A stretch of 17,850 nucleotides of DNA from a virus: the UHGV virus genome UHGV-0200089; one strand, given 5' to 3'. Both the position numbers and the translations under genes were made by a program. Positions 1,406-17,850 of this stretch are shown here, one piece after another. The first letter of the stretch is position 1. Each line of letters starts with the position of its first letter. The notes beneath the pieces were generated by a model. It did not search any database. It saw only the letters and a program-made list of their open reading frames with translations, and had not been told where the DNA came from.

Positions 1406-1430
1406 AAAAAAAGCCCCTCAACTGAGGGGC
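1406..1430 (-). terminator. Rho-independent terminator downstream of ogr
   Basis: Stem GCCCCTC / GAGGGGC with a short loop; on the minus strand it is followed by a 7-nt T tract (A7 at 1406-1412 on plus). Confidence 0.65.
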
Positions 1431-1443
1431 TTTCTGTTTGTAA

Positions 1444-1662: not shown

Positions 1663-1742
1663 CGCGAGCACCTCTTCCGGTTTTGTTGATGGTGCCATTT
1701 TAGTTAATTTATCCTTATAAAACAAACAGATAAAATAAAACA

Positions 1743-3385: not shown

Positions 3386-3399
3386 TTTTCGTCACCTCC

Positions 3400-3681
3400 T
3401 TAACCGTCATGCATCATGCTGGCACGAGCGCGCGCACGTTTATCCCGCTCGTATTTTTCGAGCGCATCCTGTAACTGGCGGTCAAGCTGTGTCCCCGGCG
3501 CAGTACCACCCGTCAGGCTGATGTGATATTCGTTTTTACTCTGGTCCACATAAGAGCGGCCAGCCGGTGCCGTGACCGGCTGATAAGCCTGATAGCCTGC
3601 ATAAGAGCTGGTCGCCGGAATATAACCACCGGTGCCATACGTGGCGGCATGAGTTCTGGCGGCGGTCTGGTCAAGTGTGTC
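3400..3681 (-). pseudogene. T: C-terminal remnant of P2 gpT-like tail tape-measure gene (about 93 codons; upper boundary approximate)
   Basis: The frame ends in TAA at 3402-3400 just upstream of the U RBS, in the position T occupies in P2. The protein-like tail is ...YGTGGYIPATSSYAGYQAYQPVTAPAGRSYVDQSKNEYHISLTGG...EKYERDKRARARASMMHDG. Upstream of ~3690 the same frame reads antisense through the P remnant. Confidence 0.5.
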
Positions 3682-3684
3682 TGA

Positions 3685-3996
3685 CTCTTTGTTGATGACC
3701 CCGAGCTTTTCCAGTACACGCCGGAAATGAAAACCGCAATGGTGCTCAAGGCAAAAGACGTTATTCGCCGTGGCTGTCTGGAATATGACGTCAGCGCCAC
3801 CGACATCACCAGCTCGTTTATGGCTATCCGCAAGACCATGACCAGCAGCGGACGCAGCGCCACCTATGAGGCCAGCCGCAGCGAGGAAGCCAGCCACGCC
3901 GACCTCGCCTGGGCGACCATGCACGCTCTGTTAAATGAGCCACTCACCGCCGGTATCAGCACCCCGCTGACATCCACCATTCTGGAGTTTTACTGA
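3685..3996 (+). pseudogene. P: C-terminal remnant of P2 gpP-like terminase large subunit (5' boundary approximate)
   Basis: The frame opens after TGA at 3682-3684 and ends in TGA at 3994-3996, overlapping the Q start as TGATG, which is the P-then-Q arrangement of P2. Only ~100 codons remain, against ~590 for a full-length P. Confidence 0.5.
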
Positions 3997-5030: not shown

Positions 5031-5033
5031 ACA

Positions 5034-5055
5034 TCGCCGCCTGCGGGCGGCTTTT
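5034..5055 (+). terminator. Rho-independent terminator after Q
   Basis: GCCGCC / GGCGGC 6-bp GC stem with TGCG loop, followed by CTTTTTT. Confidence 0.7.
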
Positions 5056-5199
5056 TTACACCCCGTCATCACCCCCTCACACGCTCACCACCGCACAAAA
5101 CACCCCGCAGACACACCAACGCCTCAACGGGCAGACTAAGCGCCGTCACGACGCGCTCAGACGCTGAAAAAATAAAATCCGCACCACCGCCAGCGCGCA

Positions 5200-5218
5200 G
5201 TGCTTTCCCCGCCTCGCC
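5200..5218. other. cos: P2-type cos site (19-nt cohesive-end sequence)
   Basis: GTGCTTTCCCCGCCTCGCC is the reverse complement of GGCGAGGCGGGGAAAGCAC, the P2 cohesive end as recalled. It lies in a C-rich tract directly after Q, where cos sits in P2. Confidence 0.65.
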
Positions 5219-5459
5219 CGCCCGCTTCATGGGGAGGTTTTAATGCAAACGCATCAGGAAGGGCAGACCTAGTCACATGTAGAATACGATAGCAATAAAA
5301 AAGTCTAATTAGAATGCAAATTGATGCAACTCTATGCCCTCCAAGAACTCCAAACCTGAAAGATTTATGTAAAACATAGTGTTCGTTTCACCAAAATACA
5401 TATAAACTACATTAAAATAGAAATTTGTCTCACCTATAAGCCATTTAGACAACAGATTA

Positions 5460-6623
5460 ATGAGGTTTGTATCACAAATGACCACAAACGAGATACTTTC
5501 GCAGCTTATCAGTCTTGGACTCAAAGGGGATAAAGTTGCTTTTGTTCGGCAGGCTTCGAAACTCGCGCGTTCCTATGATTCTATGGGGCTGCCTGAGCTT
5601 GCTTCAGCCATTAGAGGTAGTATTCAAGATAAAAACACGTTTAACTTGCAGAAAGTATCACGCAGTACATCACCTATTTTTGAACGTCTTGATACATTAC
5701 CTGTAGATAAAGAAACTAAATTTGATTTAGCAGACGTAACTCAACCGTCTTCTGAAATTCAACTCCCATTGTTGAAAGATAGCACTCTGAAAAAAATTAA
5801 AGAATTTTTGACTTTCACTGAACGAGCTAAAGAATTAAAGGATGCCGGTCTTGGCGTGACATCCTCTATGATTTTATATGGGCCACCAGGTTGTGGTAAA
5901 ACCTTGACATCAAAATATATTGCATCCTGTCTAAATTTACCGCTTCTTACTGCAAGATGTGACTCCTTAGTCTCATCATATCTGGGGTCTACTTCTAAAA
6001 ATATCAGGCAGCTATTTGAGTATGCAAGTAAAGCACCATGTGTTTTATTTCTAGATGAACTAGATTCTCTAGCAAAGGCTAGAGATGATCAGCATGAGTT
6101 AGGTGAACTGAAGAGGGTGGTGGTTTCTTTATTGCAAAATATTGACAATCTACCTGAAGAAACAATATTGATTGCTGCAAGTAATCATGAAAATCTTCTA
6201 GATAGCGCAGTTTGGAGGCGCTTTGAGTATAGAATATCTATTGGATTGCCTGATTTTGAAGTCAGAAAACAACTATTTGAACAATATTCAAACATAAAAG
6301 CTACATATGACGATTTTGTTGATGACCTTGCGGAAATATCATCAGGGCTAAACTGCTCATTTATAGAACAATGCTGCTTAAGATCTGAGCGACATGCTCT
6401 GGTTTACAATAATAAACAAATCGATACCCGATTTTTAGTCGAGGCTATCTTAGAAGCGAAGGGAGTTACATTTGATGAAGAAGATAATTTACTTATAAAG
6501 ATTGTGACCACTCTCAGAGAATACAATCCCAAAAGATTTACAATACGAAAGATAGCAAAAATACTAGGGCTTTCAAATGCTAAAGTGTCAAGGCTAACTA
6601 AGAACTATAGAGAGATATTATGA
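5460..6623 (+). CDS. AAA+ ATPase with C-terminal HTH-like segment (387 aa); cargo gene 1 of an IetAS-like pair
   Basis: Walker A 'GPPGCGKT', Walker B 'VLFLDELD', and a sensor/arginine region 'SNHENLLDSAVWRRFEYRISIGLPD'. The C-terminal 'FTIRKIAKILGLSNAKVSRLTKNY' looks like a helix-turn-helix. The stop overlaps the next gene's start as ATGA. Start could instead be ATG 5478, which has a GAGG ~12 nt upstream. Confidence 0.85.
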   Translation: MRFVSQMTTNEILSQLISLGLKGDKVAFVRQASKLARSYDSMGLPELASAIRGSIQDKNTFNLQKVSRSTSPIFERLDTLPVDKETKFDLADVTQPSSEIQLPLLKDSTLKKIKEFLTFTERAKELKDAGLGVTSSMILYGPPGCGKTLTSKYIASCLNLPLLTARCDSLVSSYLGSTSKNIRQLFEYASKAPCVLFLDELDSLAKARDDQHELGELKRVVVSLLQNIDNLPEETILIAASNHENLLDSAVWRRFEYRISIGLPDFEVRKQLFEQYSNIKATYDDFVDDLAEISSGLNCSFIEQCCLRSERHALVYNNKQIDTRFLVEAILEAKGVTFDEEDNLLIKIVTTLREYNPKRFTIRKIAKILGLSNAKVSRLTKNYREIL

Positions 6624-8884
6624 GTAACAAAGAAAGACCAATAAAAATAATTGAGGCGACACCTCAAGATTTTACTGAAAAAACATATAATTTCGGAAAG
6701 AAACAACCTATCCGAACAGTAACAACTAGTCTAAAAAATAGACTCAAACAAGAAGTCGATGACGTTAAAAATTTTTTCCAGAGCTCATTTAAAAAATGGC
6801 CCAATATACCGGCGGTGGCTAGAGTTACTCTTCATGAAAAAGCTCTTGCTAAGTCACATCGCCCATCAAGCCTATTAGGTGATAATACATGTCCCGTAAT
6901 AGGCAGTGATAATTTTGGAGAATTACTTATAAGTGTTACTGAAAAAGGGTTAGCACAACTTCGCAAAAAAATTGAAAATAGCACTAATTCTCATAATGGG
7001 ACAGTACATATTGCTGTAATTGAAAAGATCGAACCTTTTAGTCTTAACCATGATGTTATAGATAAAAATAAATCAGATAGTTTTCTTCTGAAACTCTTTG
7101 ACCATAAAGATAGAACAACTAACCGCAGTATCGACAAAGAATTAATGGAATTTGCAGATGAACTAGGAATACAAAAACCCAAAAAGTATGATATCAGTTC
7201 AGATTTGAGTATATATGAAGTAAAAGGGAATGATAACATCGCCCAACTGGCAAGTTTTATTGGCATACGAAAATTAGAACCTATGCCAACATTTGGTCTT
7301 ACTCATACAGTATCGCAATATATTCCTGCTGAAACTCTAGACCTAGATGATTTTCCCTTACCTCAAGAGGATAAACATTATCCACTACTCGGAATTATAG
7401 ATAGCGGAGTCGATCCCAATAACAACATACTTAGGCCATGGATTTGGGATAGTTTAGATTTAGTAAAAGGAGAACACGACTATTCTCATGGGAACATGGT
7501 TGCAAGTTTAGCAATTAATGGAAGATGGTTGAATAACTATGCTGGTTTTCCTCAATGCCAAGCTGAAATTGTTGATGTTGCAGCCTTTCCCAAAGATGGT
7601 ACGCTCAAATTGCCACAATTAATGAAAGCTATCCGAGAGGCTGTGACCACCTATCCAGAAGTACGTGTATGGAATCTGTCATTAGGTTGTCAATCCCCAT
7701 GTTCTGAAGACAGCTTCTCTGAATTGGGGCATTTTTTAAATGCACTTCATGATGAGCATGATTGTCTTTTCGTCGTAGCATCCGGCAACTACATTTATGA
7801 TCCTCAACGAACCTGGCCTCCTCAAGAATTAGGTGGGCATGACAGAATATCAGCCCCCGCAGATTCTGTTCGTTCATTAACTGTTGGCTCAGTTGCCCAT
7901 TTAGAATCGTCTGACTCTGTGGTCAAAAGATTTGAACCTTCATCTTTTTCTAGAAGAGGTCCCGGCCCAGCCTTTATACCCAAACCAGAGATAAATCACT
8001 TTGGAGGTAATTGTGACAGTAAATTAAACTGTGAACATACCGGAATCATAGCTATTGGCGAGGACAATGCTCTTTGCGAAAGTATTGGCACAAGTTTATC
8101 AGCACCGTTAATCTCAAGTTTAGCGGCATCACTGTGGCATGAACTAGATGTTAATGGTTCTATTTCACCATCGCCTGAACGTATCAAGGCACTATTAATT
8201 CATTCTGCGTTAAAAAACTCACCAGCCAAAACGGAGCATTATGCGTTTAATTATCAAGGATTTGGACGCCCAAGCGATCATATAAATGATATTATTGGTT
8301 GCAATAAAAATGAGATTACATTTCTATTTGAAATAGATACCCGAGAAGGTATTGAATTCAGTAGAACGCCATTTGTAATACCACAGTCATTACGTACTGA
8401 GGATGGAAAATTCACAGGTGAAATTATTATGACACTCGTTTATTCTCCACCGCTTGATTATGACTACCCATCTGAATATTGCCGTTCTAATGTGGATGTG
8501 TCATTCGGGACTTACACTTATGATCCAGTTAACGCTAAATGGATACATAGCGGAAAAATTCCACAAATAAAAGAAAAGAGTGAATTATTTGAAAAGGTAC
8601 TGATAGAAAATGGCTTCAAATGGTCTCCAGTCAAAGTTTATAGAAAACAATTTCCGCAAGGTATAAATGGGGAGCAATGGAGACTTAAACTTGATGTTCA
8701 GAGACGAGCAGAGCAAGAGCCTCTATCTTCACCTCAACGTGCTGTATTGGCTATTACGTTAAGATCTCTTGCCAATTCTACTACAGTCTACAACGAAGCC
8801 GAGGTTGAAATAAATAATCTTGGTTGGAAAGAAACTGATATTGTTGTTCGTGAACAACCAAAAATCAGGATTCGTCAAAAATAA
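6620..8884 (+). CDS. Subtilisin-like (S8) serine peptidase with N- and C-terminal extra domains (754 aa); cargo gene 2
   Basis: S8 catalytic motifs in canonical order: Asp 'LLGIIDSGVD', His 'DYSHGNMVASLA', oxyanion Asn 'FVVASGNY', Ser 'GTSLSAPLISS'. AT-rich coding sequence; translationally coupled to the ATPase. Confidence 0.85.
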   Translation: MSNKERPIKIIEATPQDFTEKTYNFGKKQPIRTVTTSLKNRLKQEVDDVKNFFQSSFKKWPNIPAVARVTLHEKALAKSHRPSSLLGDNTCPVIGSDNFGELLISVTEKGLAQLRKKIENSTNSHNGTVHIAVIEKIEPFSLNHDVIDKNKSDSFLLKLFDHKDRTTNRSIDKELMEFADELGIQKPKKYDISSDLSIYEVKGNDNIAQLASFIGIRKLEPMPTFGLTHTVSQYIPAETLDLDDFPLPQEDKHYPLLGIIDSGVDPNNNILRPWIWDSLDLVKGEHDYSHGNMVASLAINGRWLNNYAGFPQCQAEIVDVAAFPKDGTLKLPQLMKAIREAVTTYPEVRVWNLSLGCQSPCSEDSFSELGHFLNALHDEHDCLFVVASGNYIYDPQRTWPPQELGGHDRISAPADSVRSLTVGSVAHLESSDSVVKRFEPSSFSRRGPGPAFIPKPEINHFGGNCDSKLNCEHTGIIAIGEDNALCESIGTSLSAPLISSLAASLWHELDVNGSISPSPERIKALLIHSALKNSPAKTEHYAFNYQGFGRPSDHINDIIGCNKNEITFLFEIDTREGIEFSRTPFVIPQSLRTEDGKFTGEIIMTLVYSPPLDYDYPSEYCRSNVDVSFGTYTYDPVNAKWIHSGKIPQIKEKSELFEKVLIENGFKWSPVKVYRKQFPQGINGEQWRLKLDVQRRAEQEPLSSPQRAVLAITLRSLANSTTVYNEAEVEINNLGWKETDIVVREQPKIRIRQK

Positions 8885-8889
8885 GCATT

Positions 8890-8914
8890 ATGGTCACCTT
8901 TTATAGGTGACCAT
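8890..8914. terminator. Perfect 9-bp palindromic hairpin between the two convergent cargo operons
   Basis: ATGGTCACC ttttata GGTGACCAT, located between the S8 stop (8884) and the membrane-protein stop (8918). U-tracts are weak on both sides, so termination efficiency is uncertain. Confidence 0.5.
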
Positions 8915-8917
8915 TTA

Positions 8918-9679
8918 CTACACCTTATTATTTTCAACTATTTTATGAATATCCATATCAAACCAAGAAACTTGCGAAATTTCTTTTAGTGGAAAGATGA
9001 TACTAGTATCAGCATCCTCAAGCTCTCTATATTCATTCACCAAGATTACTTTCAATGAATCCTTATCTCTATACCCAGAGATAATAGGATAGATTGAAAC
9101 ATACTGGTTAGGTCCTTCTTTCTCGTTAGGCTCACCTAATGCGTTAACAATTCCTACATATGTCTTTTTATTTTGCAACGTAATAAGTATTGAACGTCTA
9201 TCAACTAACGAATCAAAAAATATTTCATCCATTGGATTATCATTAATAAGCTCTTGCCTCATCCTTAGCATGACAAGATTCTCATAATCAATATTGGCAG
9301 CCTTTACCCCTTGGATATAATTTATAATTTTAGCTCTATATATAACCAAATATCTAGCACCGACACTCCATATCCAAGCCAAAAATATCGTTCCACATGA
9401 AAGTAAAATCATCCATCCTATGATTCTTTCAGTACCATTGTCACTAAGTTTGAGATCTAATTGTTCCCGAACCATCGTGACAGGATGGAAGCTCGGACAT
9501 ATCCATTTTATTAAGTAAGCTATAATCAATGTCCATATAAAACACCACAGACCAAAGGCGGCTGACTTCATATATAACAACTGCCCATCATAACGGTGTA
9601 ATCTATAGAAATGATAAGGATGAGTGGTTAATACAATATAACCACTCACAAGTAATGGAATAATTAATAAAGCAAACAT
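8918..9679 (-). CDS. Uncharacterised membrane protein (253 aa), three predicted N-terminal TM helices plus a ~140-aa soluble C-terminal domain; cargo gene
   Basis: Hydrophobic segments FALLIIPLLVSGYIVLTT, AAFGLWCFIWTLIIAYLIKWI and IIGWMILLSCGTIFLAWIWSV. The ATG lies 2 nt after the upstream gene's TAA. AT-rich. No family recognised. Confidence 0.7.
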   Translation of the reverse strand: MFALLIIPLLVSGYIVLTTHPYHFYRLHRYDGQLLYMKSAAFGLWCFIWTLIIAYLIKWICPSFHPVTMVREQLDLKLSDNGTERIIGWMILLSCGTIFLAWIWSVGARYLVIYRAKIINYIQGVKAANIDYENLVMLRMRQELINDNPMDEIFFDSLVDRRSILITLQNKKTYVGIVNALGEPNEKEGPNQYVSIYPIISGYRDKDSLKVILVNEYRELEDADTSIIFPLKEISQVSWFDMDIHKIVENNKV

Positions 9680-9681
9680 TA

Positions 9682-9918
9682 TTAATTCCCTTTAGCCATT
9701 TTTTCTTCTTGCTTTACCTGCTCAGAAACTATTTTTCTTGCTTTAATTTTCATCAATTTTACTGTATCTGAGCTTGCCAAGTCTTCTTTAGACGTGATAA
9801 TCGCGCCTCGACCTACCACCTCAACAGTGTTTGTTCCAGATGCTTCAAGCCTCCTCGCCAGTTCTCTTTCCTTTTCAATAGCAGCTTTACCTATAATACG
9901 TTCAAATATATTCATCAT
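9682..9918 (-). CDS. Uncharacterised small charged protein (78 aa), first gene of the minus-strand cargo operon
   Basis: GGAGG RBS 4 nt upstream of the ATG (complement of 9916-9918). Lys/Glu-rich, predicted helical. Tightly coupled to the downstream membrane-protein gene. Confidence 0.6.
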   Translation of the reverse strand: MMNIFERIIGKAAIEKERELARRLEASGTNTVEVVGRGAIITSKEDLASSDTVKLMKIKARKIVSEQVKQEEKMAKGN

Positions 9919-10009
9919 TTAACCTCCACTTGATTGATGCCAAGATAGTAATCACCTCCTCACAATATCTTACCAACCTAACAACTAACAGAACACTGTG
10001 TATAAGTCC

Positions 10010-10037
10010 AGTATAGTTTAATTAATAAATTAGGCAA
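10010..10037 (-). promoter_or_regulatory. Candidate sigma70 promoter for the minus-strand cargo operon
   Basis: On the minus strand: TTGCCT, 16-nt spacer, TATACT, about 90 nt upstream of the 9918 start. Sequence-only prediction. Confidence 0.3.
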
Positions 10038-10226
10038 ATCTATCAAAATGGTATTTTGTTAAAAATTCAGCTAACTCTGAGGTTGGTAAAACAGTCCACC
10101 AGATGTATCGCTAAAGCACTTAGAAACCACTATAACCATCCTAAGTGTACCAGTCAGTCTGTTTGTCTAATCGCATCACTATGCTCGTTATTCTATCCCC
10201 CGCCAATCCTGAGCTGGCTGCGTTCT

Positions 10227-10433
10227 CTATCGTCTGCGTGGTGGCGGTGCAGCGCTGGGCTGACCGATATAGTTAAGCCATACGTAATTATCCCGGACTA
10301 TTTCGGCACACCCGACCAGCTCATCGGGCGTCAGATTTTCGTTGACCATAATCTGCTGTAGACGGTGAACAATGGCCATCAGCTTGATATTTTTAGTTTT
10401 ATGCTGCGGTATCTCGCCTGGTATTCTGTGCAT
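10227..10433 (-). CDS. Hypothetical small protein (68 aa) downstream of the ASCH-like gene
   Basis: ATG at 10433-10431 overlaps the upstream TAA as TAATG; the translation ...ENLTPDELVGCAEIVRDNYVWLNYIGQ... looks protein-like. It competes with an overlapping plus-strand ORF at 10056-10361. Confidence 0.3.
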   Translation of the reverse strand: MHRIPGEIPQHKTKNIKLMAIVHRLQQIMVNENLTPDELVGCAEIVRDNYVWLNYIGQPSAAPPPRRR

Positions 10434-10888
10434 TATCCAAGCCACCCGTTTTGCTGTGCACGCTCCACCTGTTCATCTGAATAGTTCCATATCCCATCCG
10501 CACCAACCACTGCCCCGCCAGACATCCCCGTCTCTGGTTCATACACAACAGCAAGGCCGAGCTGATGCATAATTTCATGATTAATTCTGAATACCAGACC
10601 ACGCTCACTAAGTTCTTTCCAGTTCACAAACTCATATGCGCCTGTATTAAGCAGCTCAATACTTAGCAAGACATAATCTTCCAGCCAGTCTGACAAGTCA
10701 GTAACATCTGTTATCCGGGCTTCAACCTTTCGCCCCGTATACACACCCTGCACCCATTCATGCAAAATCAACGTGTCCCCGCGCTCATAATTACGGTCAT
10801 TTTTCCGAAACTCTGCGCGTTTCTTTCCTTCCAGCACAAGGTCAAAATATTTTGCGTGCAGCTTTACCTCGTGAATTTTTGCCATCAT
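10433..10888 (-). CDS. ASCH/PUA-like domain protein (151 aa) in the P2 'orf91' position
   Basis: From the first ATG (10888-10886), which overlaps the gene A stop as ATGA: MMAKIHEVKLHAKYFDLVLEGKKRAEFRKNDRNYERGDTLILHEW... resembles the ASCH/DUF3850 fold signature. The C-terminal region contains 'INHEIMHQLG' (an HExxH). The track's longer GTG-initiated version is rejected. Confidence 0.72.
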   Translation of the reverse strand: MMAKIHEVKLHAKYFDLVLEGKKRAEFRKNDRNYERGDTLILHEWVQGVYTGRKVEARITDVTDLSDWLEDYVLLSIELLNTGAYEFVNWKELSERGLVFRINHEIMHQLGLAVVYEPETGMSGGAVVGADGIWNYSDEQVERAQQNGWLG

Positions 10889-13170
10889 TTCCACTCCATT
10901 ACTGTTGAGAATCCCGGCCACTCATCAGCGACCGGATACGTGAATTTTTTCCCGTCATAATTTACGGTCGCGCCACGCGCCAGCGCCTCAAGCTCCCATC
11001 GCTGCGGCCTGATACCGTTCTGAGCAAGGTCAACGCGGATACGGGTAATTTGCATTCTTTCCGACCGGGTCAGTCTGGCCGATGGTGCAATTTCATGTGG
11101 TTTTAACGGGCTTCCGTTTCTTTGCTGACGGTTTGGCGTTCTCAGGTCGTGTTTTAATGCACCCCTGAGCGCCCTCACGACCTCCGGTTCATTCCATTCA
11201 ATAACACCGTCATCAACCAGATTAAGCACTGCTGCGGCGTGCTCAGAAGGTGTGGGAGCCGGTAACGAAGTATCACCACCGGTGAGCTTTCCACAGTTAT
11301 TGACAGGACTCCGAGGCGCGGCGATGCCGCTTTTTAAAGTCAAAGGCTCAACGACCGGAACTTTCGGCACAATGCGCCAGTCCGTCGTTCTGGTGATATG
11401 AATATGACGCGCGCCGAGATGCGGCGCGTAAATGCCGACCACTCTCTCGACTTCTTCCTCGTATTCGTTAACGTCATCCGACGGGCTACGGGCGACCCTG
11501 ACAGTCTGACAATCGCGCGGGACATTTGCCCCGCCCTGCGCGCTGATATACAACGCAAAATCGCCACTGTCTGCGGCGGCGCGTGCAGCCTCCACGCGTT
11601 CGTCAAATTCATCAGCAATGCTGACGCCGCGAGGCAATTTACGTAGCTCACGGTAAGCTCCCATTGTCGGCAGGCCAACCGTTTTAAATTGCGGGATGCG
11701 CCACGTTGACGCCCATGCGGTAACAGCCGCCGCAGTATCTTTCAGCGGTCTGCCGGTATCGTTATCGAGCTGACCATCCAGTGCATAGCCGTCGATATTT
11801 TTTGAAATGTATTTCGCGATATATCCCGCAGCACCGCCCCGGTTAAGGTGTTTTGCCTGAAAACGGTTTCGCGCGGCTCCTCTTTCGTCGCCATCCTCTT
11901 TGAGCGCATAGCGGCGCATGATTTCGATAATCTGGTTACGCTGGCGTGGATTACAAAAAAGCATCATATGCCAGTGCGGCGTTCCGTCGTGGTGTGGCTC
12001 GACGACTCGCAAACCGTAGACCTGTAAATCATTATCCTTGAATGCCGTGCGCATCAGGCTCCAGATACGGCAGAGATAACGCTGCGCATCCTTTGGATTA
12101 AATGCCTCATCATTCCAGCCGTGATTAAGCTGGACGGTTTTATTTTCGCCTTTTCCAACCTGACGTGTCGGGTGATACTTTGACGGCGCGGTCAGCGTGA
12201 TAAACATCCCCACATCACCCTCTGAGGCGGCGTAACGCTCAATACCGGCAATGGTGTTCATCAGCTCCATCCGGCGAATTTCAGGATTAGAAATACTGCC
12301 CATCACCTTACTGATAAGGTCGATGCGCTCGCCGGTTTCCCTGTTTTCAAGGTCACACGATTTAAGAAATTCCAGATTTGCCTGGCGGCGCGCACGCACA
12401 TCACGAATGGCATGTTTACTGGCATAAGGTGAACGGTCTTTATTGACCTCCCCGACAGCTATCAGTAACGCCTCATGCCAGCGCATACGCTGGCCTTTAA
12501 GCTGATGAGTCCACCACTCATCGTTAAACAGACGGGCAATGGCAGAATATGCCTGCCTCGTGGTCATCTGCCCTTTACGGTATTTGTTCCAGTAGAGAGG
12601 GGAAATATTGAAAGCACGTGCAGCGCCAGCAACATGACCATAGAGGTGAGCCTGCGCCTCATCCGTAAACAGCGATTCTTTTTCGCCATGTGCATCCACC
12701 CAGGCATCGCTGAGTTCCTCATACATCATGAAAAGCTGCGATGAGATACGGGCAGCAAACTTTTTCAGCTCCTTGTCATTCATTCCCGGCAGGCGCGCAT
12801 AGTGGTCACGCTCTGCCAGAAACAGTAACGACGCGTCGGTGTTCATTTCATGGCGCTGATTCACACGCTCAATGCGCGGCCATAAACGACGCTGAAAAGT
12901 GGATGTGAGGAAATAAAACCCGTGCACCGGGCTTTTATTGCGCCGGATGTAGTCATAGCGTGAAGTAAACAGCGAGCGCAAAAAGTAAGGCAGGCGGTTA
13001 ATCGTGGATAAAACACCTTGCACCTGACGCATCTCGTCACGTGTAAGAGGTCTTTCGCGCCCGACAGCCTCGCGTGGCGCGTTCCATGCATAAGCACCGG
13101 TAAACGCCTTACCGGTGCCTGCGGCAAATGCTGACGGAGGGACAAAACGCCCGGAGGCTTTAACGGCCAT
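10885..13170 (-). CDS. A: P2 gpA-like rolling-circle replication initiation endonuclease (761 aa)
   Basis: From ATG 13170-13168 the protein begins MAVKASGRFVPPSAFAAGTGK... and carries the tyrosine motif 'YIAKYISKNIDGY'. Length and sequence match P2 A as recalled. The track's start at 13212 is a TTG extension. Confidence 0.92.
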   Translation of the reverse strand: MAVKASGRFVPPSAFAAGTGKAFTGAYAWNAPREAVGRERPLTRDEMRQVQGVLSTINRLPYFLRSLFTSRYDYIRRNKSPVHGFYFLTSTFQRRLWPRIERVNQRHEMNTDASLLFLAERDHYARLPGMNDKELKKFAARISSQLFMMYEELSDAWVDAHGEKESLFTDEAQAHLYGHVAGAARAFNISPLYWNKYRKGQMTTRQAYSAIARLFNDEWWTHQLKGQRMRWHEALLIAVGEVNKDRSPYASKHAIRDVRARRQANLEFLKSCDLENRETGERIDLISKVMGSISNPEIRRMELMNTIAGIERYAASEGDVGMFITLTAPSKYHPTRQVGKGENKTVQLNHGWNDEAFNPKDAQRYLCRIWSLMRTAFKDNDLQVYGLRVVEPHHDGTPHWHMMLFCNPRQRNQIIEIMRRYALKEDGDERGAARNRFQAKHLNRGGAAGYIAKYISKNIDGYALDGQLDNDTGRPLKDTAAAVTAWASTWRIPQFKTVGLPTMGAYRELRKLPRGVSIADEFDERVEAARAAADSGDFALYISAQGGANVPRDCQTVRVARSPSDDVNEYEEEVERVVGIYAPHLGARHIHITRTTDWRIVPKVPVVEPLTLKSGIAAPRSPVNNCGKLTGGDTSLPAPTPSEHAAAVLNLVDDGVIEWNEPEVVRALRGALKHDLRTPNRQQRNGSPLKPHEIAPSARLTRSERMQITRIRVDLAQNGIRPQRWELEALARGATVNYDGKKFTYPVADEWPGFSTVMEWK

Positions 13171-13435
13171 ATGAGCCAAAAGCCTCAGAACAACGCTTGC
13201 TGAGTTGCTCAACCTGCGCGTTTAAATCAGCAAAAGACTTTGCGCTTCCGGTCAGAATATCGTGATGCATCAGGCCGGAAACGAGCTGGCTTAATTTCGG
13301 GTAATAACCAACCACCGCCAGCCATTCCTGACCGGCGTTTTTACCGCTTTCCGCTCTCTTTTTCTCGTGGAGAATAAACTGAAAGCTGTCACTGGTAACG
13401 ACATAACGTTCGCCAATTTCGATACGAATACTCAT
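13160..13435 (-). CDS. Small early-operon protein (91 aa), P2 orf83 position
   Basis: ATG overlaps the upstream stop as ATGA; ends 8 nt before the gene A start. Assigned by synteny with P2. Confidence 0.7.
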   Translation of the reverse strand: MSIRIEIGERYVVTSDSFQFILHEKKRAESGKNAGQEWLAVVGYYPKLSQLVSGLMHHDILTGSAKSFADLNAQVEQLSKRCSEAFGSYGR

Positions 13436-13656
13436 GCCATTCTCCGGTAATGCTTGTTTTTTGCTTCAAAGACTGACTGGCAGGAAACACAACGCGTGGC
13501 TGACGGATAAGCTGCACGACGGGCAGCAGGTATTGGCGCGTCACACTCTTCGCAAACCAGCGCAGAAACACCGCAATGTTTTACCCTTGCCGCGTTAATC
13601 TGGCGCTCCAGTAATTCAGCCTGTTGTTCCTGAATAAAATCTATGTTGTCCGGCAT
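13432..13656 (-). CDS. TraR/DksA-type C4 zinc-finger protein (74 aa), P2 orf82 position
   Basis: 'CEECDAPIPAARRAAYPSATRCVSCQ' gives CxxC-(17)-CxxC spacing typical of the TraR/DksA zinc finger. TAATG coupling to the upstream gene. Confidence 0.75.
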   Translation of the reverse strand: MPDNIDFIQEQQAELLERQINAARVKHCGVSALVCEECDAPIPAARRAAYPSATRCVSCQSVFEAKNKHYRRMA

Positions 13657-13958
13657 TACCAGCTCCTTTTGTCGTTCAGCTTCTTAAATTCATCAGCGCA
13701 ATAGCTGGCGATTTCTGTCGTTAATTTTGTCAGTTCATCCACGGATGAAATTTGCTTATGAAATACAGCGCGTTTAACAAGTAAATTGACCACATCAGAC
13801 AGGAGGTTTAATTCATTCTGATAAATCGCGATAACAGATTCAGTTATGTCGCGTTTTTCTTTATCAAGACAAAGTTGAATAAGAGACAAATCGCCATTTT
13901 TCATAACGGCGATTTTTAAGGCGTTATTCAGTAATACAACTGAATGAGAACAGGACAT
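13656..13958 (-). CDS. Small early-operon protein (100 aa), P2 orf81 position
   Basis: ATG at 13958-13956 overlaps the upstream stop as TGATG. The track's TTG start at 13961 is one codon longer. Confidence 0.65.
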   Translation of the reverse strand: MSCSHSVVLLNNALKIAVMKNGDLSLIQLCLDKEKRDITESVIAIYQNELNLLSDVVNLLVKRAVFHKQISSVDELTKLTTEIASYCADEFKKLNDKRSW

Positions 13959-14182
13959 CAAAGCACCTCCCCGCGAGACAATCCGATATTGTGAAATTTT
14001 TCCGACTCCTGACTGAGCAGCTCGACTATCTCCACGCGGGATAACTCCGCCTTTGTGATATGGCGAATCATGGCGTCAAGATGAGAAGAAAAGCGCGTCG
14101 CAGCGTCGGCCTGTGCTTCGGTTCTGGCCTGTTGCAGCAGTAATGCGTATTTACCGCACTGATTTTCAGAAACTGTATGCAT
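13958..14182 (-). CDS. Small early-operon protein (74 aa), P2 orf80 position
   Basis: ATG at 14182-14180 with GGAG upstream; position between B and the orf81-like gene matches P2 synteny. Confidence 0.65.
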
Positions 14183-14245
14183 GACTTTCTCCAGGCAAAA
14201 AGAAGCCCCGCACGATTAAGTGCGTTAAAAACTCTGGTTAATTAC

Positions 14246-14746
14246 TTAATGCAGATATTGCTCTGGTTTTACCGACGTCAGAATTGTCGGTGCATACTCA
14301 AACAGGCTGAATAATTCACGTAATGCACGGAATAAAGCATCACGCCAGTAACATGACTCTTCATTAATTCGCCAGTATGGCTGGTTGAATTCTTTTTCAG
14401 TCAATCCGGCATGCATAAATAAAGTACGACGCTGACTGACTGTTAAAAAACTAATATATGCATACTCACTTGCGCCAACCTGACGGCGTTTTGAGAATGC
14501 CCCACGCAATTCATCAATTGCACAAACCAGCCGTTCACGTTCGACGTCGTTCATTTCTTCAAAACGCATCGTTGCGTGACGCTGTTTTAACTGCGCATGA
14601 AAGCAAACCGTTAACCGTTCGCGCTCCATCATCTGATTATAATAATCACATGTATCCTGCCAGCGAGGGACGGCCAGATGCTTACCAATTATCCGGCGCA
14701 TAGTTGCTGGCTGTTTTTCGACGAGATTGAGCGTCATCACTGTCAT
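14246..14746 (-). CDS. B: P2 gpB-like replication protein (166 aa; helicase-loader function as described for P2 B)
   Basis: MTVMTLNLVEKQPATMRRIIGKHLAVPRWQDTCDYYNQMMERERLTVCFHAQLKQRH... is near-identical to P2 B as recalled. Confidence 0.9.
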   Translation of the reverse strand: MTVMTLNLVEKQPATMRRIIGKHLAVPRWQDTCDYYNQMMERERLTVCFHAQLKQRHATMRFEEMNDVERERLVCAIDELRGAFSKRRQVGASEYAYISFLTVSQRRTLFMHAGLTEKEFNQPYWRINEESCYWRDALFRALRELFSLFEYAPTILTSVKPEQYLH

Positions 14747-14913
14747 TTCCAGAACCTCCGGCTTTTCAGAAAGGTCAGAGCCTTTTTTAACGGACTCTGT
14801 TTTTTGGTGCGGATAATGATTCCCTTGCGACCCTTCCCGTGGGTGATGGTGAAGTCAATCGCCCTGGGGCTTTCGTTACGCAATAACTGAGCAATACAAC
14901 GAGGCTCGTTCAT
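14743..14913 (-). CDS. Small basic protein between cox and B (P2 orf78 position); start uncertain
   Basis: The frame ends in TGA overlapping the B ATG as ATGA. The preferred start is ATG 14913-14911, which follows the cox stop and has a GGTGG RBS 5 nt upstream. In-frame ATGs at 14940, 14979 and 15000 would overlap cox. Confidence 0.5.
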   Translation of the reverse strand: MNEPRCIAQLLRNESPRAIDFTITHGKGRKGIIIRTKKQSPLKKALTFLKSRRFWK

Positions 14914-14923
14914 CCTTTCCACC

Positions 14924-15295
14924 TTAAGCCGCACGGCCATGTCTTGATTTGCTGTAACTAATGCGATTTTTCCAGTCATGCCATTCTGTCGGAGCTTCAT
15001 CAACCAGTTGGGCTGCGTACTTGTCCCACTCACGGCGATTAATCCATAATTCAGCTTTCCCTCTTGGTTTTAATGGGTCTGTCATGTAGAAGGCTGGCAG
15101 CTTTCCTGCTTTAGCCATTTCAGCCACCGCGCGTGGTGTCTTACCGATGTAAAGAGCAAAACCTTCTTTCGACAGCAAATCAGATGGGCGCTCTGAAATC
15201 TGAATGCTTTTACGTTTGGCTTCATTTTCGAAACTTGCCTCATCGCTAGTTGGACAAGAAATTTCTACATTTGTCGTCACTTTGCTATCCTCCAT
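14924..15295 (-). CDS. cox: Cox-like protein (123 aa) of the P2-type lysogeny switch
   Basis: Divergent from C and first gene of the cox-B-A early operon. The central HTH-like segment 'FALYIGKTPRAVAEMAKAGKLPAFYMTDP' is Cox/AlpA-like. The sequence differs clearly from P2 Cox as recalled. Confidence 0.65.
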   Translation of the reverse strand: MEDSKVTTNVEISCPTSDEASFENEAKRKSIQISERPSDLLSKEGFALYIGKTPRAVAEMAKAGKLPAFYMTDPLKPRGKAELWINRREWDKYAAQLVDEAPTEWHDWKNRISYSKSRHGRAA

Positions 15296-15388
15296 AAGAT
15301 TTGCGATTCACCAACTGGAGCCATCTAGAGCCTTTTTGAGTGAATCACAAATTGCCAAGTAGCAATATAATTGGAGATTAGCAAAATT
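15296..15388. promoter_or_regulatory. Immunity switch region between divergent cox and C (expected to hold the early and repressor promoters and operators)
   Basis: 93-bp AT-rich spacer between divergent starts. Contains the inverted repeat GATTCAC (15303-15309) / GTGAATC (15336-15342) and a TATAAT at 15366-15371. The assignment is by analogy with P2. Confidence 0.45.
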
Positions 15389-15688
15389 ATGTCAAGTGAA
15401 CAAAGTGAGAAACTAAAGCTCATCCGTGAATCCGAACGCCTTAAAACTAAGGAACTTGCTGAATTAATTGGAATTAATTACTACACATATCATGGATATG
15501 AATCAGGAAAATCAAAAATGCCTATGGAAGCAGGTATGAAGCTGTTTAAGCATCCACGCTTTCGCAAGTATCGTGACTGGTTCATGTTTGATGAAACAGA
15601 TCCAGCAGCTGGACAAATAGCCCCGGCTCTCGCACACATTGGGCAAGACTCAACAACCTTGCACCACTCAGACCAGAAGACTGGCTGA
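15389..15688 (+). CDS. C: P2 C-type immunity repressor (99 aa)
   Basis: ATG 15389 with GGAG at 15373-15376. The C-terminal half '...QIAPALAHIGQDSTTLHHSDQKTG' matches the P2 C dimerisation region as recalled, while the N-terminal DNA-binding half is divergent. Same length as P2 C. Confidence 0.85.
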   Translation: MSSEQSEKLKLIRESERLKTKELAELIGINYYTYHGYESGKSKMPMEAGMKLFKHPRFRKYRDWFMFDETDPAAGQIAPALAHIGQDSTTLHHSDQKTG

Positions 15689-15781
15689 CGATTTATTCAG
15701 CATATGTGTGTAGTAAATGTACGAAAGAAAATTGCATTAATTTTCAAGTAGTAGAAGTAAACAGCGTCATCGGAGGGCTTT

Positions 15782-16777
15782 ATGTCTATTAAAAAGCTCG
15801 ATGATGGTCGTTATGAAGTGGACGTCAGACCGCAGGGTGCAGATGGAAAACGTATCAGGCGGAAATTTAAAACTAAAGGTGAAGCTCAGGCATTCGAACG
15901 TCATGTACTGGTTAACTACCACAACAAAGAGTGGTTGGAGAAACCAGCCGACCGCCGAACTCTTACAGAGTTGTTAGGTAGATGGTGGATATATCACGGA
16001 AAATCACATGAGCGTGGAGATATTGAACGGGGGCGTTTAACGACAATAATCGCCAAATTTGCAGAAATGGGAGTGTCCAGAGCTGACCAGCTAACAAAGA
16101 AAACGATAACTGATTATCGCGTTGTAATGATGAACGATGGTCTAAAACCAGCCAGCGTAAATCGACATCTGGCAATAATGAGCGGGATGTTCACCAAGTT
16201 AATTGACGCCGGTGAATACCACTCCCACAACCCGTTCCGTGAGATTAAACGGTTACGTGAAGCTGTTACGGAAATGGCTTTTTTGTCCAGTGAAGAGATT
16301 ACGCGGCTGTTATCCATGCTTGATGGTGATGAATTAAATGCAACTCTGGTCTGCCTTTCTACTGGTGGACGCTGGAGTGAAGTGTCTAATTTAAAAGCTG
16401 AACACATCATTAACCAGATGGTTACGTTTATGAAAACTAAAAACGGAAAACGCAGGACAATTCCCGTTTCGCAGGACCTGATTAAACGGATCAAGACCAA
16501 AAATTCAGGCAGGCTTTTTAATGCCAGTTACTACAAAGTGCGTAACGCTCTCAGGGAAGTAAAACCCGATTTACCTGACGGACAAGCAGTACATGTTTTG
16601 AGGCATACATTTGCCACACATTTTATAATGAATGGAGGTAACATAATCACATTGCAGCGCATCCTGGGTCATTCTAACATTCAGCAAACTATGACCTACG
16701 CACACTTTGCACCGGATTTCTTACAAGATGCTGTGACTCTTAACCCGGTGTCAGGAATGTCCATAATGCGTCCATAA
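15782..16777 (+). CDS. int: Tyrosine integrase, P2 Int family (331 aa)
   Basis: MSIKKLDDGRYEVDVRPQGADGKRIRRKF... N-terminus and the C-terminal catalytic region '...HVLRHTFATHFIMNGGNIITLQRILGHSNIQQTMTYAHFAP...' (R, H-x-x-R, Y) are colinear with P2 Int as recalled. Sits next to attR. Confidence 0.93.
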   Translation: MSIKKLDDGRYEVDVRPQGADGKRIRRKFKTKGEAQAFERHVLVNYHNKEWLEKPADRRTLTELLGRWWIYHGKSHERGDIERGRLTTIIAKFAEMGVSRADQLTKKTITDYRVVMMNDGLKPASVNRHLAIMSGMFTKLIDAGEYHSHNPFREIKRLREAVTEMAFLSSEEITRLLSMLDGDELNATLVCLSTGGRWSEVSNLKAEHIINQMVTFMKTKNGKRRTIPVSQDLIKRIKTKNSGRLFNASYYKVRNALREVKPDLPDGQAVHVLRHTFATHFIMNGGNIITLQRILGHSNIQQTMTYAHFAPDFLQDAVTLNPVSGMSIMRP

Positions 16778-16808
16778 ACCAGAGTTAACTAGAGCCAATT
16801 GAAGCGAT

Positions 16809-17606
16809 ATGAGTAATTTAACTAATTGTAATACAACAGAAAATACCGCTACGGCGGGGGCTACCAAGTCAGTTATTGGTCGCATTCACTCCTTTGAATC
16901 CTGTGGAACCGTAGACGGCCCAGGTATTCGCTTTATCACCTTTTTCCAGGGCTGCCTGATGCGCTGCCTGTATTGTCATAACCGCGACACCTGGGACACG
17001 CATGGCGGTAAAGAAGTTACCGTTGAAGATTTGATGAAGGAAGTGGTGACCTATCGCCACTTTATGAACGCTTCCGGCGGCGGCGTTACCGCATCCGGCG
17101 GTGAAGCAATCCTGCAAGCTGAGTTTGTTCGTGACTGGTTCCGCGCCTGCAAAAAAGAAGGCATTCATACCTGTCTGGACACCAACGGTTTTGTTCGTCG
17201 TTACGATCCGGTGATTGATGAACTGCTGGAAGTAACCGACCTGGTAATGCTCGATCTCAAACAGATGAACGACGAGATCCACCAAAATCTGGTTGGAGTT
17301 TCCAACCACCGCACGCTGGAGTTCGCTAAATATCTGGCGAACAAAAATGTGAAGGTGTGGATCCGCTACGTTGTTGTCCCAGGCTGGTCTGACGATGACG
17401 ATTCAGCGCATCGCCTCGGTGAATTTACCCGTGATATGGGCAACGTTGAGAAAATCGAGCTTCTCCCCTACCACGAGCTGGGCAAACACAAATGGGTGGC
17501 AATGGGTGAAGAGTACAAACTCGACGGTGTTAAACCACCGAAGAAAGAGACCATGGAACGCGTGAAAGGCATTCTTGAGCAGTACGGTCATAAGGTAATG
17601 TTCTAA
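16809..17606 (+). CDS. pflA: Pyruvate formate-lyase activating enzyme (radical SAM) with a prophage-derived 20-aa N-terminal extension replacing the native start
   Basis: From 16869 the translation is [40 protein letters not shown]..., i.e. E. coli PflA with the radical-SAM CxxxCxxC cluster. The only in-frame ATG upstream of the cluster is 16809, inside phage-arm sequence, with a weak GAAG RBS. Confidence 0.88.
16868..16880. repeat. attR core, direct repeat GTCAGTTATTGGT
   Basis: Identical to 1318-1330. It corresponds to codons 1-5 of native pflA, except that the native ATG is replaced by AAG here (A at 16866-16867). Confidence 0.8.
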
Positions 17607-17618
17607 TTTCCCCGTAAA

Positions 17619-17648
17619 GCGGCAACTTTATTGAGTTGCCGCTTTTTT
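17619..17648 (+). terminator. Rho-independent terminator after pflA (possibly bidirectional)
   Basis: Stem GCGGCAAC / GTTGCCGC with an 8-nt loop, followed by TTTTTT. Confidence 0.75.
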
Positions 17649-17687
17649 ATTCCGCGCTTCATTCTGCTACAGCGTTTTTAACACATC

Positions 17688-17850
17688 TTATAGTGCATCT
17701 ACCATATCCCGTACCTGAGATAATAACGACTGATAATAGCTCGCGTGAAGTTCTTCCCCATCGAATACCACTGTATTACACAAGAAAGTGACATCGGCAT
17801 CTTCAATACCAAGATAACTGCACATATTTTTTAAATAATCGCTTATATTT
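17688..17850 (-). CDS. 3' end of a convergent chromosomal gene (partial; product not identified)
   Basis: Minus-strand frame is open from the window edge to TAA (complement of 17688-17690); the C-terminus reads ...LGIEDADVTFLCNTVVFDGEELHASYYQSLLSQVRDMVDAL. About 53 codons, not assignable from sequence alone. Confidence 0.4.
   Translation of the reverse strand, partial: NISDYLKNMCSYLGIEDADVTFLCNTVVFDGEELHASYYQSLLSQVRDMVDAL

Follow-up and report, generated by a model that had tools for sequence, protein, structure and literature searches.

The integration site studied here has already been catalogued for P2-like coliphages: ΦD145 (sequences AM158280, AM159077 and AJ298559) has its attB at MG1655 coordinate 950293 (Table 1, PMC3448106), and ΦECA29 of Pectobacterium atrosepticum shares the ΦD145 integration site (PMC3448106). 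The ECA29 prophage lies in pflA, and a review calls the insertion a disruption (PMC13492144). At torS, the temperate phage HK022 provides a separate promoter next to int that drives the host gene; this promoter has been mapped and is independent of int (PMC6814406). We found no paper in the open-access literature linking pflA with P2-like integration in E. coli. In NC_000913.3, pflA occupies 950340–951080 on the complement strand. If, as we presume, an older MG1655 version is offset from NC_000913.3 by ~777 bp, coordinate 950293 would fall in the first pflA codons, a placement that depends on the NC_000913.3 annotation and the presumed offset.

Pyruvate formate-lyase is the central enzyme of enterobacterial mixed-acid fermentation and is inactive without PflA, its radical-SAM activase. 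The window analysed here, the whole 17,850-nucleotide stretch of UHGV virus genome UHGV-0200089, holds a defective P2-like prophage with its attB in the first pflA codons, and by this integration site we assign the prophage to the ΦD145 class. We propose, with a probability of about 0.72, that a phage of this integration class rebuilt pflA with a phage start, and that the rebuilt gene is transcribed from phage DNA by read-through from the repressor promoter Pc, by local promoters or by both.

Anatomy of the insertion

The insertion was dissected by a junction repeat search, ORF translation and alignment with E. coli K-12 MG1655. Joined together, window positions 901–1330 and 16881–17700 are 100% identical to K-12 over 1,250 nt without a gap; the 15.5-kb element is a clean insertion, and the reconstructed empty site matches K-12. 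The 13-bp att core GTCAGTTATTGGT is present twice, at 1318–1330 on the left, pflB side and at 16868–16880 on the right, int side. It is the longest exact repeat between both junctions, corresponds to nucleotides 3–15 of pflA, and its left copy matches the attP of the free phages D8 and vB_YpM_46. The insertion point lies within the pflA reading frame (codons 1–5), not upstream of the gene, so that pflA has lost its own Shine–Dalgarno sequence and start codon besides its promoter. That promoter was reportedly placed in the pflB–pflA intergenic region by Sauter and Sawers in 1990. The native ATG, stranded beyond the pflB stop at 1124, now opens a stub ORF that stops ahead of the phage P′-arm terminator (Table 1).

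The earlier note had pflA physically cut off from its native promoter, as the junction anatomy and the K-12 comparison confirm, and had the native pflB terminator and intergenic region lying far upstream and pointing into the prophage. The latter holds for 1125–1315, but the native ATG and codons 2–5 were also left there. What the note overlooked, while right about the loss of the promoter, is that the phage replaces the start codon and N terminus: the frame in the window begins at the phage ATG at 16809, not at 16868/16869.

Within the prophage, Pfam bears out the identities proposed for C, int and cox. C and cox are divergent across a 93-bp switch spacer, as in a P2-like lysogeny module, and the C–int module is 99.9% identical at the nucleotide level to the Peduovirus phages P24E6b, D8 and 11W. 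The free phages D8 and vB_YpM_46 have the gene order int–attP–terminator–ogr; in the window the prophage carries int at one end and ogr at the other, in agreement with the P2-like int/attP/ogr order. The element also carries an internal deletion junction near 3714/3715, where a tape-measure fragment meets a terminase fragment, and this junction was found in 0 of 5,426 complete E. coli genomes.

The attP of D8 and vB_YpM_46 consists of an ATG, 19 codons, the core, four codons and a stop, followed by the terminator. In the free phage this terminator would end a C–int–mini-ORF transcript; in the lysogen, transcription from the orphaned native promoter would be halted there. Two direct repeats, GTCCATAA, overlap a candidate -10 element and the int stop codon and, by analogy with P2, are probably Int arm-type binding sites. 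Similar GTCCAC/GACCAC motifs can be read from the sequence of the P′ arm at ~1380–1400.

Table 1 Features of the pflA locus and its prophage, in window coordinates.
Feature	Position	Strand	Evidence
pflB 3′ part (pyruvate formate-lyase)	12–1124	+	ORF; flank 100% identical to K-12, annotated pflB there
pflB intrinsic terminator	1164–1192	+	11-bp stem, GAAA loop, UUUUUU; -24.7 kcal/mol, z = -4.46
Native pflB–pflA intergenic region, orphaned, with Shine–Dalgarno GGAGA	1193–1315	+	Identical to K-12 upstream of pflA
Native pflA ATG and codons 2–5, now 8-codon stub ORF MSVIGDIF* entering phage DNA	1316–1342	+	Translation
Defective P2-like (Peduovirus) prophage	1331–16867
Phage P′-arm terminator, ends ogr on the minus strand	1410–1433		10-bp GC-rich stem, z = -6.07; directly after core in D8 attP
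ogr	1444–1662	-	ORF list, Pfam
D, U, tape-measure fragment, then terminase fragment	within 1331–16867		ORFs, Pfam
Portal Q	3996–5030		ORFs, Pfam
IetA (AAA+ ATPase) and IetS (S8 peptidase), anti-phage defence cargo	5460–8884	+	PADLOC (E = 9e-132 for IetA, 1e-273 for IetS); Pfam AAA and Peptidase_S8
A	10885–13212	-	ORFs, Pfam
B	within 1331–16867		ORFs, Pfam
cox	14924–15295	-	Pfam Phage_Cox, E = 3e-29
Lysis–lysogeny switch region with Pe and Pc	15296–15388		Consensus scan
C immunity repressor, 99 aa	15389–15688	+	Pfam HTH_19; annotated C or immunity repressor in phage records
int, tyrosine integrase, 331 aa	15782–16777	+	Pfam Int_N and Phage_integrase
Candidate local promoter TTAACC-16-CATAAT, inside int 3′ end, just upstream of phage ATG	16740–16767	+	Consensus scan
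Two direct repeats GTCCATAA, 11 nt spacing	16759–16777	+	Repeat search on D8 attP
Spacer from int stop to phage ATG, 31 nt	16778–16808	+	Weak Shine–Dalgarno, -2.1 kcal/mol; no RNA structure
Phage start codon and 19 codons, part of attP P arm	16809–16868	+	Junction and free-phage attP
Fusion pflA ORF, 265 aa (20 phage-encoded residues and PflA residues 2–246)	16809–17606	+	Translation
pflA intrinsic terminator	17616–17645	+	13-bp stem and U-run, z = -5.13

The fusion gene and its open frame

A P2-like temperate phage of the ΦD145 class would have recombined through the 13-bp core in pflA codons 1–5, stranding the native promoter, ribosome-binding site and ATG at the pflB-side junction, where they would drive the 8-codon stub. 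Since the int-side attP arm carries an in-frame ATG and 19 codons, integration rebuilds a complete pflA, which would of necessity be transcribed from phage DNA. Residues 21–265 of the fusion are identical to PDB 3C8F/3CB8, native PflA residues are unaltered from Ser2 onward, and the 265-aa protein is already annotated as pflA by PGAP/RefSeq (WP_000067979.1). The AlphaFold2 model of the fusion has a confident core (pTM 0.82) and pLDDT < 50 for residues 1–18, and the 20-residue N-terminal tail is probably disordered, judging by this model. Other PflA orthologues are annotated with different N-terminal extensions, for example a 262-aa protein in Providencia.

The Shine–Dalgarno duplex at the phage ATG (-2.1 kcal/mol) is weaker than that of native pflA (-6.4 kcal/mol), which makes translation efficiency uncertain. 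Between 16809 and Met51 of the fusion, no canonical in-frame start was found; Met51 is Met32 of native PflA, within the cluster-binding motif CLMRCLYC. For the window, initiation at the native start position was rejected: that codon is AAG, despite a strong SD-like G-run ahead of it (-8.6 kcal/mol). We infer that translation begins at the weakly preceded ATG at 16809 and yields an active tailed enzyme. A start at the native position may serve in the Rahnella type (ATG), in L093, a locus that has lost the prophage, and in locus L096 (GTG in both).

The phage-side junction is present in 405 of 5,426 complete E. coli genomes (~7%), once per genome and always abutting pflA. Full-length int is kept at 394 of these junctions and the shortfall matches a divergent E. 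coli type, S42 (Int 87%, different C class); fossil junctions without int are accordingly not evident in E. coli. All inspected lysogen records annotate a full-length pflA, the exact 265-aa fusion protein is found on at least 1,000 public contigs, and 336 contigs carry a Klebsiella PflA with the identical extension. Relatives with 76–100% identical Int occupy the same site in five other genera.

Among these relatives, the in-frame replacement of the 5′ coding sequence is supplied by the element and is conserved. In seven junctions from six genera (Int 76–100% identical) and in the S42 type, the ATG never varies; despite 65–77% nucleotide identity, stops number 0 in the pflA frame and 2–5 in the other two; IMG/VR loci agree in keeping the ATG and open frame. 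Selection on the peptide itself is a different matter. Substitutions in the extension fall at all codon positions with no third-position bias, and pN is 0.20–0.34 in the extension versus 0.01–0.10 in the core, leaving codon-level purifying selection on the extension peptide unsupported. As read from these alignments, what is conserved is the start codon and the open frame, not the peptide sequence. The junction alignment has no indels at all, so that spacing constraints on the attP arm, for instance from Int arm sites or a possible IHF site, could help to keep the frame independently of translation.

Where the prophage has been lost, fossil junctions retain an intact fusion gene with dN/dS of 0.01–0.06, dS being saturated in the comparisons. 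Two Salmonella contigs have kept the phage-derived pflA 5′ end while Pc, C and ~80% of int are deleted; their fusion pflA is intact with dN/dS ~0.01 (dS saturated), indicating strong purifying selection. No homologue of the native pflB–pflA intergenic region is detectable at the Salmonella junction, and all in-frame canonical starts before the Cys motif are phage-derived. In all three fossil loci, the last ~175–200 nt of int persist ahead of the fusion ATG as dead, non-coding sequence. The left edges of these remnants are similar (window-equivalent ~16585–16603) but not identical; a shared identical edge was considered and dropped, as the Salmonella alignment may extend further left. L093 has GTG at the native start position and may retain part of the native intergenic region, and for both reasons is not a clean promoter test. 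The Salmonella contigs carry a SopD-family effector gene between pflB and pflA, which we take to be sopD2 from its 319-aa length and position.

Transcription of the rebuilt gene

In P2, Pe and Pc converge in the switch region and Pc drives C and int in the lysogen (PMC3936717). The consensus scan of the switch region in the window gives ATCACA-16-TATAAT (15344–15371) as the best plus-strand match and TTGACA-17-AATTAT (15395–15367) as the best minus-strand match; with converging promoters in P2 and the scan as guide, any exact placement of Pc is tentative. Downstream of the switch region, the first plus-strand terminator predicted is that of pflA, with none from 15296 up to 17616. The int–pflA and C–int spacer RNAs fold no better than shuffles (z = -0.71 and z = +1.27, respectively), and a hidden terminator or structured RNA in either spacer is rejected by terminator prediction together with these z-scores. 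The earlier note, which had pflA as the next gene after C–int on the same strand and saw no hairpin terminator between the int stop (16777) and pflA, is correct on both counts, with no terminator-like site at 16778–16868. Given the shared strand and the absence of a predicted terminator, a Pc–C–int–pflA transcript is structurally expected and Pc read-through to 17616–17645 is unobstructed. Integration shifts the terminator that normally follows attP to the opposite prophage end, and by this relocation Pc transcripts can pass C and int into pflA and end at the pflA terminator. Intrinsic-terminator prediction would not reveal Rho-dependent termination, or processing of the RNA, between int and pflA.

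The int 3′ end also holds promoter-like sequences. The candidate at 16740–16767 has a weight-matrix score of 7.8, above the 99th percentile of shuffles, and would start transcripts close to the int stop codon; a second candidate, with its -10 at 16675, likewise scores above the 99th percentile. Promoter-like matches in the region as a whole are not above shuffles (7 found, 5.1 ± 2.7 expected). The first candidate has counterparts at the same position in L093 (score 9.3) and in the Rahnella prophage (8.1); the S42 and Scandinavium types have a weak version of the site, L096 has none, and the -35 is not conserved. No single σ70 promoter was found whose alignment position is common to every prophage and fossil lineage; at the best shared site, three of eight sequences have a good match and one has none. 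The overlap of the 16740–16767 candidate with the putative Int arm sites suggests that Int binding might modulate it.

With these candidates, pflA might be driven mainly by a dedicated outward promoter situated in the P arm or at the 3′ end of int, Pc read-through adding little; to this arrangement we give somewhat less than even odds. It would account for the best candidate and its high scores in two further loci and is consistent with the ~175–200 nt of int kept upstream of the fusion ATG in the three fossil loci; precedents exist in HK022/torS (PMC6814406) and in dusA islands with putative promoters (PMC4482086). The variable -35 and the weak or missing site in three lineages argue against it, the -10-like element may be conserved only through its overlap with the GTCCATAA repeats, and the strong L093 match comes from a locus with a GTG and a possible native intergenic remnant.

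At the other extreme, pflA would have no promoter of its own and be only the third cistron of Pc–C–int–pflA, with PflA supply tracking the immunity state. The common strand, the lack of any terminator prediction or stable hairpin between the switch region and 17616, the role of Pc in P2 (PMC3936717), the relocation of the free-phage operon terminator upon integration, and local promoter matches that are neither enriched over shuffles nor positionally conserved across lineages all agree with such a strict arrangement. We nevertheless consider exclusive dependence on Pc unlikely, given the two candidates above the 99th percentile and the Salmonella fusion, intact without Pc, C, most of int or a native intergenic homologue. 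From the latter it follows that pflA there can do with a promoter other than Pc, located near the int 3′ end, although this promoter could postdate prophage decay. The claim of the earlier note that pflA transcription depends on the lysogenic promoter and is coupled to immunity state is hence unsupported as stated, in view of these contigs, the HK022/torS precedent and the candidate at 16740–16767.

Simple disruption, in which pflA is broken, the in-frame ATG is incidental to attP and lysogens tolerate the loss of PflA, can draw on the review statement that ECA29 ‘disrupted the pflA gene’ (PMC13492144), on the weak Shine–Dalgarno sequence and on an indel-free attP arm that could keep frame for non-translational reasons, but is very improbable against an invariant ATG with no in-frame stop in any lineage, a fusion under strong purifying selection long after prophage loss, 405 E. 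coli junctions with full-length pflA in the inspected lysogen records, and Salmonella contigs that offer no non-phage start codon.

We therefore favour a pflA rebuilt with a phage start and transcribed from phage DNA, in which at least one weak promoter within the final ~200 nt of int probably adds to Pc read-through and may suffice alone. A more far-reaching idea, which seems doubtful to us, is that selection has led this phage family to preserve pflA function through a surrogate translation start, and probably a promoter, carried in its attachment-site arm, that the arrangement has become permanent in some lineages such as Salmonella enterica, and that in live lysogens PflA supply is at least partly tied to Pc–C–int. 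If this were true, the pflA 5′ region of Salmonella enterica would be a phage start codon and a dead int fragment, the SopD-family effector gene would be cargo left by a decayed ΦD145-class prophage, and mixed-acid fermentation capacity would be linked to prophage immunity state in live lysogens (~7% of complete E. coli, also Klebsiella).

Significance and comparison with described systems

On our reading, the promoter, ribosome-binding site and start codon of pflA would be phage DNA in ~7% of completely sequenced E. coli, in Klebsiella and in several other genera. If pflA expression differs from native expression or follows the C–int operon, a widespread prophage would be changing anaerobic physiology unnoticed, as HK022 has been shown to do for TMAO respiration (PMC6814406). 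For the 265-aa PflA of two Salmonella contigs, and for the SopD-family gene that separates their pflB from pflA, the locus offers a concrete origin; it also corrects the reading of pflA insertions in the accessible literature as ones that ‘disrupt’ the gene.

With its P2-type C/Cox/Int module, the prophage resembles the ΦD145/ΦD160 class of P2-like coliphages. The insertion of ΦECA29 is called a disruption in the literature, whereas the evidence in the window indicates restoration. HK022 at torS is similar in three respects: a temperate phage sits at the 5′ side of an anaerobic-metabolism host gene, no phage gene separates int from the junction, and the native promoter is displaced so that the host gene is, or for pflA would be, transcribed from inside the prophage (PMC6814406). 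However, HK022 inserts upstream of the torS coding sequence and leaves its start codon intact, whereas the pflA prophage replaces the start and adds 20 residues; and HK022 int is repressed in lysogens, whereas a P2-type int shares the active repressor promoter.

Displacement of a native promoter by integration at or in the 5′ end of a gene, as found here, also characterizes prophages and genomic islands with dusA-specific integrases, which integrate within the 5′ end of a protein-coding gene and have putative promoters present after integration (Farrugia 2015, PMC4482086). They differ in integrase family, target gene and hosts, and their replacement sequence mimics a structural beta-strand, whereas the residues added to PflA form a fast-evolving tail that is predicted to be disordered. 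As in tRNA and phage 186-type integration, the target gene stays intact through a phage-carried copy of the displaced part (PMC3448106). In the 186 type, the 3′ end of the gene is duplicated and its promoter and start are untouched, whereas in pflA the 5′ end is replaced by non-homologous sequence and regulation is necessarily rewired.

Insertion of the prophage within pflA

Joined together, positions 901–1330 and 16881–17700 match E. coli K-12 MG1655 at 100% identity over 1,250 nt without a gap, so the prophage is a clean, site-specific insertion. A 13-bp core, GTCAGTTATTGGT, is present twice (1318–1330 and 16868–16880) and covers the final base of the pflA ATG plus codons 2–5. The left junction keeps the native pflA ATG (1316) and its Shine–Dalgarno sequence, and this ATG now heads an 8-codon stub (MSVIGDIF, then a stop codon) with a strong phage terminator on its 3′ side. 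Read upstream from the right junction, the frame of pflA stays open into phage DNA as far as ATG 16809, the sole canonical start after an in-frame stop at 16800. The fusion product has 265 amino acids, 20 of them phage-encoded and followed by PflA residues 2–246, and PGAP annotates exactly this reading frame as pflA in lysogens (WP_000067979.1).

The earlier note had placed the pflB terminator and native intergenic region at 1125–1330, directed into the prophage, with C (the immunity repressor) and int on the strand of pflA and int (stop at 16777) as the last phage gene ahead of it; the feature positions bear this out. Its observation that pflA is separated from its native promoter is partly confirmed: the separation holds, but the position of the crossover was missed, as the duplicated core puts it inside pflA. 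The insertion is better termed a replacement of the 5′ end than a promoter cut-off.

Features of the pflB–prophage–pflA stretch
Feature	Position	Strand	Score
pflB 3′ part	to 1124		
pflB terminator	1164–1192		z = −4.5
Native pflB–pflA intergenic region	between pflB terminator and prophage		
P2-like prophage remnant, 15.5 kb	1331–16867		
Strong phage terminator 3′ of stub	1410–1433		z = −6.1
Anti-phage defence pair IetA (AAA+ ATPase) and IetS (S8 peptidase)	5460–8884		PADLOC E = 9e-132, 1e-273
ORFs of 253, 78 and 162 aa between IetS and gene A	8918–9918, 10433–10921	minus	
pflA terminator	17616–17645		z = −5.1

Pfam matches cover C (HTH), Int, Cox, the portal protein and the radical-SAM PflA, and the C–int module is 99.9% identical to those of the isolated peduoviruses P24E6b, P24A7b, D8, 11W and 12W and 99.6% identical to that of pro483. 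The prophage is defective: at about 3400–5030, a tape-measure fragment abuts a terminase fragment and portal, and the deletion near 3714/3715 takes out capsid, lysis, baseplate and tail genes; its junction is absent from all 5,426 complete E. coli genomes searched. The IetA/IetS cargo occupies the P2 variable region. The three minus-strand ORFs, which had no PADLOC match (nor, for the 253-aa ORF, a Pfam match), may be further hotspot cargo.

A predicted phage-derived start for pflA

In the free phages D8 and vB_YpM_46, int is directly followed by a 31-nt spacer, an ATG, 19 codons, the core, four codons and a stop, and the terminator shared with the ogr end comes after this mini-ORF. The start codon of pflA is a phage feature: integration joins the first 20 codons of the 27-codon mini-ORF to pflA, and the terminator at which the C–int transcript would end is shifted to the other prophage end. 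At the int stop lie two GTCCATAA repeats with a spacing of 11 nt, probably arm sites for Int.

This replacement of the pflA 5′ end is real and common. Among the 5,426 complete E. coli genomes, 405 contain the phage-side junction (16690–16868), in a single copy each and invariably directly beside pflA; 394 of these retain full int. At least 1,000 public contigs encode the exact 265-aa fusion protein, and the identical extension is joined to a Klebsiella PflA on 336 contigs. An Int 76–100% identical to that of the window, followed by pflA at equal spacing, occurs in E. albertii, three Scandinavium species, Pseudescherichia vulneris and Rahnella ecdela. The prophage type of E. coli S42 has the same layout, with Int 87% identical; because its C is only 74% identical, it represents another immunity class.

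Selection appears, from the pattern of substitution, to keep the start codon and an open frame rather than any particular peptide, because in every lineage examined the ATG never varies and the frame of pflA is stop-free (with 2–5 stops in the other two frames, at 65–77% nucleotide identity), junction substitutions are distributed over all three codon positions, and pN is far higher in the extension (0.20–0.34) than in the PflA core (0.01–0.10). Spacing constraints on the attP arm probably also help to hold the frame, since the junction alignment contains zero indels.

Searching with the fusion PflA as protein query recovered 264–265-aa forms in other clusters, three of them in prophage-free loci, hereafter fossils. 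In two Salmonella enterica contigs (L098 and L099, 1394–3798), pflB is followed by an opposite-strand gene for a 319-aa SopD-family protein, presumably sopD2, then by 571 nt and a 265-aa fusion pflA. A Yersiniaceae-like locus (L093; Logan contigs L093 and L094) has pflB, 431 nt and the fusion pflA; in the third (L096; Logan contigs L096 and L097), a GntP permease gene precedes the fusion pflA, and pflB is not adjacent. About 200 nt 5′ of the fossil ATG show homology to the 3′ end of int (window-equivalent about 16585–16849, 68–75% identity), and this remnant is full of stops and frameshifts; the fusion gene itself is intact, with dN/dS of 0.01–0.06 at saturated dS. The Salmonella locus, where no homologue of the native pflB–pflA intergenic region was detected and the in-frame starts before the cluster-binding cysteines are all phage-derived, is the cleanest of the fossils. 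The L093 locus, with GTG at the native start position, is less clean and may keep part of the native intergenic region. From the fossils, the phage-derived start appears to be functional. Salmonella PflA, as seen in two contigs, may begin at a phage-derived codon, and the SopD-family islet may be a remnant of a ΦD145-class prophage.

Within the window, pflA has no canonical start option other than ATG 16809; the next in-frame ATG sits within the CLMRCLYC cluster motif. ATG 16809 has a weak Shine–Dalgarno sequence, at −2.1 kcal/mol compared with −6.4 kcal/mol at native pflA. A G-run resembling a strong Shine–Dalgarno sequence, GGCGGGGGCT (16853–16868, −8.6 kcal/mol), lies ahead of the codon at the native start position, which is AAG in the window, ATG in the Rahnella type and GTG in the L093 and L096 fossils. 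This G-run may represent the relic of an internal start, or an alternative to one. Residues 21–265 of the fusion match the crystallised enzyme (3C8F/3CB8) exactly, and in an AlphaFold2 model built from a 30-sequence alignment the core is confident (pTM 0.82) and residues 1–18 have pLDDT below 50. Other N-terminal extensions are annotated on some PflA orthologues, for example in Providencia (262 aa). Four orthologues of 258–264 aa from Providencia and other taxa (P0007, P0012, P0079 and P0080) carry an annotated 12–18-residue Thr/Ser-rich extension of their own, which may be native, the product of a misassigned start or an older phage fossil.

Possible sources of pflA transcription

Two compatible, non-exclusive sources could supply pflA transcripts: read-through from the repressor promoter Pc and a local promoter. 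We put the probability that Pc read-through contributes measurably at about 0.6. As the earlier note had stated, no terminator is visible between int and pflA: a plus-strand scan from 15296 to 17616 predicted none, and neither the int–pflA spacer (z = −0.71) nor the C–int spacer (z = +1.27) folds better than shuffled RNA, so a Pc transcript would meet no predicted stop before the pflA terminator. Around the switch, the best consensus matches for its two promoters lie back-to-back at 15344–15395 with overlapping −10 elements, unlike P2 Pe and Pc, which are described as converging (PMC3936717).

The odds that a promoter exists in the 3′ end of int are about even. The best candidate, TTAACC-16-CATAAT (16740–16767), has a predicted start near the int stop codon. 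Its score exceeds the 99th percentile of shuffles in the window and, at the equivalent position, in the Rahnella prophage and L093; in the S42 and Scandinavium types the site is weak, and L096 lacks it. Total promoter-like matches do not exceed chance. Phage HK022 speaks, as a precedent, for a local source: there the host gene torS is driven by a mapped phage promoter beside int and not by the int promoter (PMC6814406).

That Pc is the sole source, although compatible with the lack of predicted stops, is unlikely, as the fossils show Pc, C and most of int to be apparently dispensable for keeping pflA in use. The earlier interpretation, that pflA transcription depends on the lysogenic promoter, is thus partly supported: nothing predicted blocks Pc read-through, but fossil pflA persists without Pc.

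Relation to known integration systems

Versions of the MG1655 genome are presumably offset by about 777 bp, which would put coordinate 950293 about 10 nt inside pflA (950340–951080, complement strand, in NC_000913.3) and within the core. For coliphages ΦD145 and ΦD160, attB is listed at this coordinate, and Pectobacterium atrosepticum ΦECA29 is given the same site identity (Nilsson et al. 2011, PMC3448106); the pflA attachment site is already catalogued and not new. A 2026 review states that ECA29 'disrupted the pflA gene' (PMC13492144). The accessible literature yielded no account of a phage-supplied start codon or of how pflA is expressed in lysogens. The finding would gain in weight if the supply of PflA in lysogens were altered or tied to immunity, or if the Salmonella fossil were species-wide.

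The mechanism is of a known kind, integration into the 5′ end of a gene with replacement sequence from the element, as in the dusA islands (PMC4482086), or promoter replacement by a prophage, as with HK022 at torS (PMC6814406). An integrase about 70% identical to Int of the window, on IMG/VR contig L086 (2485–2700), belongs to a related phage that targets another site: it lies beside pyrE rather than pflA, and a GC-rich hairpin separates int from the host gene.
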